From an uncultured archaeon (GTDB taxonomy: Archaea > Asgardarchaeota > Thorarchaeia > Thorarchaeales > Thorarchaeaceae): a stretch of 5,902 nucleotides of DNA. The position numbers were made by a program, and so were the translations under genes. Positions 3,228 through 5,902 of this stretch are shown one piece after another (the first letter of the stretch is position 1; every line of letters begins with the position of its first letter). The notes beneath the pieces are model-generated. The model was given only the letters and a program-made list of their open reading frames with translations, did no database searches and was not told where the DNA came from. The stretch lies in NCBI GenBank assembly GCA_964354495.1, contig CAYHAA010000043.1, positions 1-5,902 of the forward strand. Reading direction: 5' to 3'.

Positions 3228-3250
3228 GTCTTTATCATCATGCCTTGATG

Positions 3251-3808
3251 ATGAAACGAGTGCTAATCCTTGGACCCAGCGGCTCAGGAAAGTCCACCCT
3301 GGGCGAAAGACTTGGTCGAATGCTCAGTGTTCCCATTATTCATTTGGACCAATGTTATTGGAAGCCGAATTGGGTATGCACTCCTGAAGATGAATGGCAG
3401 GCCAAGGTCAAGGATCTCATCGGTTCAGACGCGTGGGTCATGGATGGGAACTATACATCGACCCTCAGTCTTCGTGCCTCCGCTGCAGACACCATCATCT
3501 TCATTGATGTTCCTCGAAGGTTGTCGTACCTCCGCATATTCACCAGGTTTCTCAGATTTCGAGGCAGCACAAGACCGGACCTTACTGAAGACTGCCCAGA
3601 GAAGATAGACTTAGATTTCATCAGATGGATCTGGGACTACCCTCGCACCCGCAGACCGGCGATTCTGAGGTTTCTGGAGAAACAGAAGGCGACGAAGAAC
3701 GTGTTTGTCCTTCGGGGTCAACGGGAGACTGAAGCATTCCTTCGCACTCTTAGAAGTAGAGATGGCGGAGAGTTGTCGGGCCGTCACTCCCTTGAGAGTT
3801 CCAGCTGA
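3251..3808 (+). CDS. flaR: FlaR-like DNA topology modulation protein / adenylate-kinase-like P-loop protein
   Basis: Walker A motif ILGPSGSGKST, plus HLDQCYWKPNW, WVMDGNY, ADTIIFID and RPDLTEDCPEKIDLDFIRWIWDY, which are characteristic of the FlaR family. The start could be 3245, 3248 or 3251. The duplicate at 287 supports 3251. Confidence 0.85.
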   Translation: MKRVLILGPSGSGKSTLGERLGRMLSVPIIHLDQCYWKPNWVCTPEDEWQAKVKDLIGSDAWVMDGNYTSTLSLRASAADTIIFIDVPRRLSYLRIFTRFLRFRGSTRPDLTEDCPEKIDLDFIRWIWDYPRTRRPAILRFLEKQKATKNVFVLRGQRETEAFLRTLRSRDGGELSGRHSLESSS

Positions 3809-3875: not shown

Positions 3876-4427
3876 TTGATAGTGAAGCGCCTGTCGCGAT
3901 TTCAGGGACTTCTTGTTGCGGGCCTGCTCCTAGTTCTTGCCGGGAGTTTCCTGCCTATTCGTTTCCCAATCTGGAGCAGTCAGAGCACTCTTGAGATGGG
4001 CCTCGCCCCTCAGGATAACATCGATATTCCAGTGAGCATACCGCATGGTTGGTCACTCTGGATCAATGTCATATTCGATGACTCAGCCGTTCCAGAGGAC
4101 TGTTGGGTATGGACGCAGGTAGACTACCGATACCCGACAAAGTACATTGGCGAGACTGCAATCCGCCTCGAGGGTCAGCGCGAAGTGAGCTTCACCTTCG
4201 GCTGGGAGAATGTGCGCCTCATTCCTATCTTCGTCACTGGGTTCATGGTCAGGCTGTTCTACCTTGGTTCAGAGACCGTCACCGTCAATGTCACTATCAG
4301 TAGCCTGGCAACCGTAGCCACTGTGGTGGGTCTTGGCCTCATCCTTGTCTCTGTCTTGGTCACCATAGCTCCGGTCATGATGAACATGTTTGGTGGGTGG
4401 AGAACTAAGGAACAACTGATGAAATAA
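3876..4427 (+). CDS. Hypothetical membrane protein with N- and C-terminal TM helices
   Basis: 183-aa ORF with hydrophobic GLLVAGLLLVLAGSFLP and VATVVGLGLILVSVLVTIAPV flanking a beta-rich soluble region. A G-rich SD-like GGGGG lies upstream. The start is TTG 3876 or GTG 3882. Confidence 0.75.
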   Translation: MIVKRLSRFQGLLVAGLLLVLAGSFLPIRFPIWSSQSTLEMGLAPQDNIDIPVSIPHGWSLWINVIFDDSAVPEDCWVWTQVDYRYPTKYIGETAIRLEGQREVSFTFGWENVRLIPIFVTGFMVRLFYLGSETVTVNVTISSLATVATVVGLGLILVSVLVTIAPVMMNMFGGWRTKEQLMK

Positions 4428-4539
4428 TGGTCGGAGTGGCAGGACTCTCAGCAGTCCTAGAGTTCGTGATTGATTGTCTACGACACACTCCTTCATTGTG
4501 AATGACCCGCTCATCAGAATAATGCATTACCAATCAGTA

Positions 4540-4550: not shown

Positions 4551-4615
4551 GAGATATTCAAGACTCCATGCCGGAATCGGGATGTAGCTCAACCTGGCAG
4601 AGCTATGGACTGTAG

Positions 4616-4645
4616 AAGGCTCGGCTTTGGTCGTTGCCTGGAGAG
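4616..4645 (+). other. tRNA intron 1 (canonical 37/38, 30 nt, relaxed BHB)
   Basis: The central helix CTGT(4610-13)/GGAG(4640-43) has one G:G mismatch. The 3-nt bulges are AGA and AGA. The outer helix is AGGC(4617-20)/GCCT(4636-39). Confidence 0.9.
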
Positions 4646-4667
4646 ATCCATTGGTTGCCGGTTCAAA

Positions 4668-4697
4668 GGCTTTCGCAATTCCTGCGATGACTGAATG
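4668..4697 (+). other. tRNA intron 2 (non-canonical T-loop position 59/60, 30 nt, BHB)
   Basis: The central helix TTCA(4662-65)/TGAA(4692-95) is perfect. The 3-nt bulges are AAG and TGT. The intron hairpin is TCGCA(4673-77)/TGCGA(4683-87). Confidence 0.9.
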
Positions 4698-4714
4698 TCC
4701 GGCCATCCCGACCA

Positions 4715-4727
4715 TTTTTCCTTTTTC
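4715..4727 (+). terminator. Oligo-T archaeal terminator of tRNA-Tyr
   Basis: TTTTTCCTTTTTC immediately follows the CCA end. Confidence 0.65.
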
Positions 4728-4774
4728 GTCATGACTTAACAGCAATGGACTGTAGCTGACCTGTTTCTTACATG

Positions 4775-4881
4775 TGAGTGAACATCAACTGTAAGCAACT
4801 TCTGTGTTCTGTCCTTACTCAACCTGATGTCGCCATCAATCTCAGGTGTCATCCTGAAACTAGTCGAGTCATTGTCCAATC
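4775..4881 (-). ncRNA. Putative TnpB omegaRNA scaffold / IS200-IS605 right end, copy 1
   Basis: 107 nt directly after the tnpB stop, colinear without indels with 5463-5569 (73/107 identical; 53/63 in the 3'-most part). It has covarying stems and a GCGA tetraloop hairpin, and ends ...GATGTTCACTCA. The true 5' boundary may extend into the CDS. Confidence 0.7.
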
Positions 4882-5365
4882 TCATTGGAAAGCAATCCCT
4901 CCAATAGACCTGACGTCTTTATCCTGCTTCACTACTGATTCATCATTAACAGCAGCAGAAATGGTTTCCACAGTCTTTCCACGCATGGTCATTCTCACCC
5001 TTCCTGATTTCTTCACTGAATCTAAGAAAATCCGTTTGGATGTGGTGAGAGGCTGCGGACTCTCTAGAACCTGATGATTGTTCAATAACAGAGAGTAAGG
5101 ACTTCCCTCGAGGTTTTCTCCCTTGGATTTTCGGTCGTGGACTCTTTGCCTTTTGGACTGCATCATTCCACTTACCTTGTCCTCTCATAGAGTGAAGCGA
5201 ATCTGTGAGCGTAATGAGTCTTCCAGCGATATTGATGGATTCATTTCAGTCTGCACTCGTCTTGCGCGCGCATGAGGGGCAGATGAAAAGATTCTGTCTA
5301 GGCCGGGCTCCCTTCGGCCTGCGTTTCCAACACGTGATAGAGGTCCATGATTCTGGAATGTCATA
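4882..5365 (-). pseudogene. tnpB: 5'-truncated IS200/IS605 TnpB pseudogene (Zn ribbon, RuvC-III and long C-terminal tail), copy 1
   Basis: My translation: IPESWTSITCWKRRPKGARPRQNLFICPSCARKTSAD*NESINIAGRLITLTDSLHSMRGQGKW.... This matches the TnpB C-terminal pattern TS..C..C...F.CP.C...AD.NA..NIA.R. Lesions: Zn-ligand Cys to Arg (5323-5321), TGA at 5248-5246 right after the RuvC-III Asp, and a frameshift at about 4972-4985 joining the track ORFs 4946..5188 and 4882..5166. Confidence 0.85.
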
Positions 5366-5462
5366 CTAGTTGGTTTCTTTGCGAGTCTAGTTGAGCATCT
5401 GCAACAATCGATTACGGATTGACTTTTCGGAGCGTATCTCTTGACCTATCTCCTGCTATTGT

Positions 5463-5569
5463 TGAGTGAACATCAACCGCAAGAAACCTCTGTGTTCTAC
5501 CATTTCTTGACCTGATGTCGCCATCGCACTTTGGCACCACCCAAAGGTCAGTCAAGACTTCATCCCCAG
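5463..5569 (-). ncRNA. Putative TnpB omegaRNA scaffold / IS200-IS605 right end, copy 2
   Basis: Homolog of 4775-4881 with compensatory changes. It ends ...GATGTTCACTCA(A), followed by an unrelated flank. Confidence 0.7.
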
Positions 5570-5902
5570 TCATCGAGACACTGTCCCTCCTAGGGCTCTG
5601 GTTTCTTTCTCCTGTATTTCTGGCGGAGTATCATTTCCGCAGACAGAGAGTCTTTCCACAGTTCTTTCCACGGCGGGGTCATTCTCACTCCTCTCGGGTT
5701 CGTCGCCGAAGTCGAGAAGGTCCGACTGGACAAAGTGATCAGCCGCGGACTCCCTGGAGTCTGATACGTGACTCCTCTTTTGGAGTAAGGACATCAGTTG
5801 TGGATTCTTCCCTGTGTTCACAGAGTCCACCCACTTTCCTCGTCCTCTCACAGAATGAAGTTATCCTGTGAGCGTGATAAGGCGTGCACCAATATTGATG
5901 GA
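5570..5902 (-). CDS. tnpB: 3' end of a second TnpB (begins beyond the right edge), with an in-frame TAA at 5863-5861
   Basis: SINIGARLITLTG*LHSVRGRGKWVDSV...SRESAADHFVQSDLLDF...GGTVSR* aligns with copy 1 (SINIAGRLITLTDSLHSMRGQGKW...SRESAASHHIQTDFLRF...GGIAFQ*), with mostly synonymous differences in conserved blocks. Whether the upstream catalytic core is intact cannot be seen in this window. Confidence 0.75.

Follow-up and report, generated by a model that had tools for sequence, protein, structure and literature searches.

TnpB nucleases are guided by an omegaRNA that is drawn from the right end of the element together with about 16–20 nt of its flank, and IS200/IS605 elements make no target duplications. 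In Asgard archaea, tnpB is found at loci that also carry a Cas1 homologue, where a 'hypervariable region' and then a conserved GTTCACTCA lie downstream of tnpB; the meaning of this arrangement was left open, the 'hypervariable' region upstream of GTTCACTCA being proposed as possibly spacer-like (PMC10691335). Here we analyse one whole 5.9-kb contig (C43; all 5,902 nt of it are called the window below) from a 51-contig, 3.3-Mb Thorarchaeota genome, which holds two TnpB-derived modules beside a tRNA-Tyr gene. The GTTCACTCA motif is present in both modules, at 4775-4783 and 5463-5471, as well as in about 40 relatives, and judged by sequence the window copies belong to this computationally described kind of Asgard TnpB locus. 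We interpret the pair, with a probability of roughly 0.8, as debris left by repeated insertion at a tRNA hotspot, with rearrangement there and decay afterwards.

Both modules lie head to tail on the minus strand, copy 1 at 4757-5359 and copy 2 at 5442-5902. They are homologous (about 65-70% identity), 688 nt apart, and oriented toward the tRNA-Tyr(GTA) gene at 4578-4714, much as a first-pass annotation of the window had described. They are 3' tails of TnpB elements, each made up of the zinc-finger/RuvC-III end of the protein and an RNA module of about 480 nt. Metagenome contigs, X1 and X2 among them, bridge the tandem: one of 37.5 kb from a sediment metagenome is about 93% identical, and several shorter contigs are about 95% identical. 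The tandem is therefore not an assembly artefact and is common to related strains. At the right edge, the last 55 nt of the window are the first 55 nt of contig C6 of the same genome, an exact overlap whose joining is also backed by synteny. Past its copy-2 part, C6 continues into unrelated genes, the same ones that come after the complete element in sister genomes. The features of the locus are listed below; G012 is the closest relative of the window's genome, and G023 shares its layout at this site.

4428-4451, minus strand: 24-nt remnant of a tRNA-Tyr 3' end, seen as inverted-repeat arm I1, 79% complementary to 4691-4719.
4578-4714, plus strand: intact tRNA-Tyr(GTA) with encoded CCA, from an ARAGORN call on the spliced sequence.
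4741-4755, plus strand: true flank of copy 1, a 15-nt tRNA-Tyr piece (positions ~22-37), seen as direct repeat D4, 14/15 against 4601-4615.
4757-5237, minus strand: structured, omegaRNA-like RNA module of copy 1, covering nhmmer positions 6-503 of the 503-column family profile and containing covarying helices.
5238-5359, minus strand: remnant of the copy-1 TnpB C-terminus, from alignment with intact paralogues, tblastn and motifs mapped on solved TnpB structures.
5360-5425, no strand: 66 nt of filler of unassigned origin, 27% identical to the family consensus, which is the random level; it separates copy 1 from the copy-2 flank.
5426-5441, plus strand: true flank of copy 2; G012 homology begins at 5426, and the flank is kept in sister genomes.
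5442-5902, minus strand: structured RNA module of copy 2 with the last tnpB codons, covering nhmmer profile positions 7-503, with support from the C6 overlap and from synteny with G012 and G023.

The boundaries in this list rest on the anatomy of the RNA module. A genus-wide search with the protein gave dozens of matches that cover residues ~440-551 only, and these represent discrete modules of about 480-500 nt; the RNA module overlaps the last 110 tnpB codons. An alignment of twenty RNA-only modules together with both window copies and full-length copies shows a constant 3' end, consisting in order of an outer stem (CTTACA/TGTAAG), an inner hairpin with the GTTCACTCA loop, a short variable linker and an AGGTCA or AGGTTA tail. 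Alignments of more than 40 copies run through TGTAAGA...AGGTCA and diverge only beyond it, and the element ends fall at 4757 for copy 1 and 5442 for copy 2, each within ±1 nt. In copy 1 the terminal stem pairs 4790-4795 with 4767-4772 and the AGGTCA tail occupies 4757-4762; in copy 2 the stem pairs 5479-5483 with 5452-5456, and the TAA of tnpB lies at 5871-5873. The RNAalifold consensus of 44 sequences contains about 27 helices, many of them with compensatory changes; one hairpin has them in 8 of its 9 pairs, and the stem that encloses it in 6 of 8. In the terminal stem all 6 pairs show two-sided changes, with observed scores reached by none of 500 shuffles. It is 84.8% paired; with the partners slid, the whole ten-pair structure pairs at 29-49%. 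Guides predicted from the GTTCACTCA motif are therefore wrong: the true element end lies about 20-25 nt past GTTCACTCA, after the covarying stem and the AGGTCA tail, which moves the position of the guide. By analogy with IS605-type TnpB, we infer that the RNA module would serve as the omegaRNA scaffold and the sequence just past AGGTCA as the guide. The same anatomy suggests that the 'hypervariable region' of the Asgard loci (PMC10691335) corresponds to the set of 5' stem arms, and so to scaffold and not to guide.

Insertions elsewhere in the genus also place the element end. Two RNA-only modules in G009 are lacking at the matching sites in G015, G007, G006 and G000, and in G009 both are flanked by direct duplications of 11 bp that start right after AGGTYA; empty sites and duplications together fix the element end at AGGTYA. 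One such insertion is L052 (G009:C92:1200-4900), with empty sites at G015:C176:~8062-8072, G007:C28:~4210-4220 and G000:C15:~50130-50242. The RNA-only modules as a group, which carry no tnpB, have target duplications of 10-11 bp and combine constant 3' ends with variable 5' ends lying 0-138 nt upstream of the module. They cluster in a shallow, star-like clade that reaches dozens of copies in some genomes.

With the right end in this position, the picture of two modules whose homology breaks off at GTTCACTCA, each followed by its own guide-like flank, no longer holds. The TGTAAGA-like and AGGTCA motifs are common to both copies and to about 40 relatives, and the supposed flanks are themselves element sequence, over 18 of 20 nt in copy 1 (4774-4755, which takes in the 3' strand of the stem at 4767-4772 and the tail at 4757-4762) and over all 20 nt in copy 2 (5462-5443). 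What makes them differ is the divergence of the copies, together with indels in the linker, and not a role as guides. Searched against the genome, neither 20-mer has a second match at up to 3 mismatches; 16-mers taken from the true flanks give chance-level matches only, besides the nearby tRNA-Tyr.

The true flanks lead to the tRNA-Tyr gene. This gene is interrupted by two 30-nt introns, one at 4616-4645 in the canonical 37/38 position and one at 4668-4697 in the T-loop; default ARAGORN reported no tRNA in the window and an Rfam scan returned nothing there at E up to 1, the gene being recovered by ARAGORN only after the introns were removed by hand. The copy-1 flank (4741-4755) directly adjoins the element end of copy 1, and the tRNA-Tyr piece in it stops at the 37/38 intron site. 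Next to copy 2, the stretch 5428-5440 resembles the first 13 nt of tRNA-Tyr, at 10/13 in the window and 12/13 in G012, and, as read from alignments, the same 13-mer adjoins the element end in G012 and G023. The third fragment, at 4428-4451, comprises the end of the T-loop intron, the T-stem, the acceptor and CCA in the orientation opposite to the intact gene; in G012 an intact tRNA-Tyr occupies exactly this site, right after the same membrane-protein gene. That G012 counterpart has its introns elsewhere (D-loop and 37/38) and differs in its acceptor stem. On C6, an ARAGORN prediction of a 'tRNA-Pro with 469-nt intron' was considered as a further element insertion and rejected as a prediction artefact around a multi-intron tRNA.

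Comparison with relatives separates the two copies. In G012 the order is the membrane-protein gene, an intact tRNA-Tyr on the opposite strand, a 72-nt spacer, the 13-mer and a complete element, and G023 is laid out in the same way. Both genomes carry at this site only the complete copy-2-lineage element (tnpB plus a giant gene) and are without copy 1. Relative to G012, the tRNA and its promoter region are inverted in the window's genome, and a shared 15-mer stands in the opposite orientation. In the tree of modules, copy 2 groups with the G012 (92%) and G023 (83%) elements and copy 1 with the C27 lineage, named here for another contig of the window's genome; the two copies are 65% identical to each other, and intact paralogues are 64-68% identical to either. 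As the copies sit in separate deep lineages of the family, they represent separate arrivals and not a local duplication. The copy-2 region with its flank (5426-5901) is 92% identical to the G012 element, and upstream of ~5850 identity to G012 falls first to 77-78% and further on to 48-63%. There the sequence resembles copy 1 instead (79% identity), which makes copy 2 a recombinant of the two lineages.

Junctions with tRNA sequence recur across the family. We compared the 60 nt past the right end of 54 copies with the tRNA set of the window's genome; 11 of the 54 flanks match tRNAs (shuffled mean ~1.3, maximum 5), and most matches begin at the first flank nucleotide. The junctions, read on the tnpB-sense strand, are as follows.

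tRNA-Gly complement from the CCA end: the C27 copy and its G012 counterpart.
tRNA-Arg from about position 39: G015.
tRNA-Asp positions 13 to 1: G003, G013 and G016.
tRNA-Ser: G002.
tRNA-Tyr positions ~37 to 22: window copy 1.
tRNA-Tyr positions 13 to 1: window copy 2 and its G012 and G023 counterparts, as read from the alignments.

The C27 copy has an intact tRNA-Gly on one side; on the other, the stop codon of the giant gene is followed at once by a 47-nt repeat of the tRNA 3' half (27-76). Its G012 counterpart is bracketed likewise, and bracketing of this sort marks an element as lodged in a tRNA gene. Partial right ends are stacked behind full copies in other genomes too (for example L018, L019, L033). 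Since the family often lands in or beside tRNA genes, the orientation of the window modules, which had been described as pointing at a tRNA, reflects target preference. If transcription reads through the right end as in IS605-type omegaRNAs, the guides of these scaffolds would be antisense tRNA sequence. As a separate observation, two complete elements (L019+L079 in G013:C11 and L023+L082 in G023:C62) lie between inverted 13-14-mers that equal a tRNA 5' end, of tRNA-Asp in G013 and of a tRNA-Tyr-like sequence in G023; the far 13-14-mer in G013 is part of an intact tRNA-Asp, 20 nt past the giant-gene stop.

The complete members of the family show what the window copies have lost. The family counts ten loci in the window's genome and hundreds in the genus. 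Four copies in the window's genome are complete, on C17, C27, C6 and C31; a further copy on C15 is full-length with one in-frame TGA, another on C24 is cut by the contig end, and several are 3' fragments. The TnpB paralogues are 551-593 residues long, and homologues of about 550-560 aa are named Candidatus Thorarchaeota TnpB or transposase. Residues up to ~437-445 align to TnpB models and solved structures, and about 110 residues follow after that. The full-length paralogues carry RuvC-I (GVDLG), the zinc finger and RuvC-III (NADRNG), have R and not E at the canonical RuvC-II column, and match the Pfam TNB domain/PF07282 and NCBIfam guided_TnpB/NF040570 (90 bits, against a cut-off of 100).

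Copy 1 had been described as dead and 5'-truncated, and its lesions bear this out. Its homology to the family begins near 5359, a cut at about codon 389 that removes RuvC-I and RuvC-II; in what remains, one zinc-finger cysteine is lost, a TGA (5246-5248) falls in the RuvC-III motif and a 2-nt deletion near 4981 shifts the frame. Copy 2 runs on into C6:56-430, which encodes TnpB codons ~307-449 with stops, and lacks tnpB codons 1-306, hence RuvC-I and RuvC-II, together with the giant partner gene. With these lesions neither copy can encode a nuclease, and this includes copy 2, whose TnpB had been suggested as a user of both RNAs. The RNA structure of copy 1, which the first-pass annotation took to be fully intact, is largely preserved, with 85% of 104 well-supported consensus pairs retained (88% in C27, its nearest intact relative; family median 98%), but its 2-nt deletion breaks a conserved 7-bp helix whose pairing reaches 98% over the family. 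Both nucleotides are still present in the related metagenome contig (93% identity), where the helix would be complete, with a compensated G-to-A and C-to-U change; on this reading the copy-1 lesion is recent and strain-specific, and so looks like decay. At first sight the tnpB core of copy 1, with 52% identity to the consensus, has decayed more quickly than the RNA module, with 71%; this was rejected, as the difference disappears once the non-homologous filler at 5360-5425 is left out.

Taken together, these observations support the reading that the first-pass annotation had offered as its fallback, a hotspot of repeated insertion beside the tRNA. We envision that two lineages arrived separately at one tRNA-Tyr target; that rearrangement would have come next, comprising an inversion that included the tRNA, a deletion of about 5.7 kb in copy 2 and the 5' truncation of copy 1; and that both copies would have decayed thereafter. 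This order of events, like the enzyme that would have carried out the insertions, we infer from the junctions and from the counterparts in relatives. Several points weigh against such a history. The inversion and the three tRNA-Tyr fragments did not yield a stepwise history. Target duplications were looked for around both window copies and none was found. Y1 TnpA (PF01797) was not found in the six genomes searched (G000, 97.7% complete, G015, G024, G007, G011 and G012; positive controls worked). The giant partner protein gave no Cas1 signal in Pfam, PADLOC, NCBIfam, PDB sequence and profile searches or the protein atlas. As for decay itself, the 85% of pairs kept in copy 1 is close to the level of its intact sister lineage, and copy 2 retains 87%, the same as its intact counterparts (87-88%); positions 5426-5850 of copy 2 are 90-98% identical to G012 while the neighbouring protein genes are only 81% identical; and two RNA libraries from a single soil study gave contigs (370 and 410 nt; 97% identity) that cover only 5457-5857.

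The points on copy 2 form the core of the likeliest alternative, although we consider it unlikely, namely that copy 2 alone matters, its RNA module persisting as a solo guide-RNA gene used in trans and copy 1 being junk. The step in G012 identity near 5850, the pair preservation equal to that of intact copies, the RNA-library contigs that span just the copy-2 module and the dozens of RNA-only modules in the genus with target duplications of their own would all fit it. The upstream drop in identity, however, is explained by chimerism, as this part of copy 2 comes from the other lineage, and high identity to G012 is also expected from the recent independent landing of a circulating element; conservation and pair retention fit selection on the RNA and a recent, independent, site-specific arrival equally. 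This genome has no intact TnpB of the copy-2 lineage; its closest module is 68% identical. The RNA contigs belong to another organism, in which a complete copy may be their source, and contig ends within a repeat family are unreliable; transcripts from complete copies in other organisms explain these contigs equally well. The public sequencing runs offered contig data only, and at most 19% of the sampled words were present in any one run.

In a broader form, the tails, copy 2 above all, would be trans-acting guide-RNA genes with tRNA-Tyr-directed specificities for intact TnpBs, a multi-guide locus built by target-site accretion. We regard this as very unlikely, and use of the modules in trans as unlikely in general; if true, such a locus would mark one way in which transposon guide RNAs could have become arrays.

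We give still less credence to the functional two-guide locus that the first-pass annotation had proposed as a proto-array, in which both modules are transcribed and loaded in trans by intact paralogous TnpBs as a step toward an array. The genome does have four or five apparently intact paralogous tnpB genes, 85-87% of well-supported pairs are kept in both modules, both true flanks are derived from tRNA-Tyr, and the tandem is retained in related strains; guide-RNA-only elements of the IS605 type that need TnpB in trans have moreover been discussed (Meers et al. preprint, 10.1101/2023.03.14.532601). Yet the flanks that were taken as guides are scaffold, and the modules, at 65% identity and from different lineages, do not repeat a single unit. 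Identity between the intact paralogues and either module is no more than 64-68%, copy 1 carries a fresh helix-breaking deletion, and the tnpB genes of both copies are dead. The true flanks fit the intact tRNA-Tyr imperfectly (14/15 and 10/13) and nothing else above chance, and no RNA contig was found on copy 1 among the public-run contigs, which is weak evidence as it comes from contigs only. A local tandem duplication of one module followed by divergence is highly unlikely, for although the head-to-tail order, the 688-nt spacing and the 79% identity of the 5' portions would suit it, the copies are 67% identical over the BLAST-aligned 3' 300 nt, each is closer to elements elsewhere, and copy 1 is missing from G012 and G023.

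Complete elements of this family place tnpB head to head with a giant gene of 1540-1913 codons without recognisable domains, an arrangement seen at four paralogous loci here and in relatives. A genome-wide search for Cas1 with PF01867 was negative, and a library-wide HMMER profile search with the giant protein gave 140 matches, all of the same family and none to Cas1. AlphaFold models of the protein were too poor to use, with a mean predicted local distance difference test score (pLDDT) of 53 for the C-terminal 420 aa and 44 for the N-terminal 380 aa. By eye, the N-terminal 380 aa (for example L061:2238-3377) contain the motifs EG...LNxLLNY...H...DFxD, which we note as a lead only; their invariant residues form a pattern, E..R, N.E..RV.S, G.LN...N..G..LRD, H...P..DF.D..R.H, that recalls the catalytic motifs of Cas1 to the eye, a likeness that no sequence or profile test confirmed. 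Between tnpB and the giant gene lies a structured segment of about 95 nt that ends in a right-end-like AAGAC-AGGTCAG; its sites in G000 are C17:~1990-2200, C27:~8940-9170, C6:~15290-15520 and C31:~7680-7850. The segment is flanked by a 12-20-nt direct repeat with a TATA-like box, which matches within a paralogue and differs between paralogues.

Away from the TnpB modules, the window contains a 30-nt direct repeat (29/30) at 286-315 and 3250-3279, 2964 nt apart. The repeat corresponds to the first codons of a P-loop kinase-like gene (3245-3808), with the second copy upstream, and it encloses two minus-strand genes, which encode a secreted/membrane protein of 265 aa and a transglutaminase-like one of 484 aa. 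The pattern suggests a cassette whose insertion duplicated the start of the P-loop kinase-like gene.

Set beside known systems, the locus resembles CRISPR arrays and type V proto-arrays in placing an RNA-scaffold unit in direct repetition beside Cas12-related genes. The units, however, are 480-690 nt long, 65% identical and of different origin, with neither short unique spacers nor an adaptation module, and what had looked like spacers is conserved scaffold. With the Asgard aCas1-TnpB loci (Cas1H-Asgard-1/-2; Altae-Tran et al. 2023, PMC10691335) the family shares an Asgard host, a very large partner gene, the downstream GTTCACTCA and flanking repeats; the window differs in having only truncated tails and no partner gene, and the partner family has no demonstrable Cas1 homology. 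Integrative elements that target tRNA genes, and casposons, likewise abut a tRNA, carry a far-end repeat of a tRNA 3' half as C27 does, and stack at one tRNA. Unlike these, the present family has junctions at several tRNA positions (13, 37-39 and 76), and some of its repeats are inverted 13-14-mers. Of att-type bracketing, the window retains tRNA-Tyr fragments that abut both element ends, the far ends having been deleted.

Further likenesses join the family to IS200/IS605 TnpB and the guide-RNA-bearing PATE elements (10.1101/2023.03.14.532601), among them a structured RNA that runs over the 3' end of the gene to the right end, a TnpB-family nuclease, RNA-only derivatives without a protein, and a flank as the would-be guide. 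It departs from IS200/IS605 in having no Y1 TnpA in the six genomes, 11-bp target duplications around the RNA-only derivatives, an unusually long RNA module (~480 nt) and complete elements at tRNA-linked sites. Within its genus the locus is an ordinary one, the wreckage of a multi-copy element at its usual landing site, and what it adds to the systems above is a corrected right-end anatomy and one more case of tRNA-derived flanks. Since the sequence in the correct guide position is often antisense tRNA, we propose that these TnpB nucleases may aim at tRNA-gene target sites.

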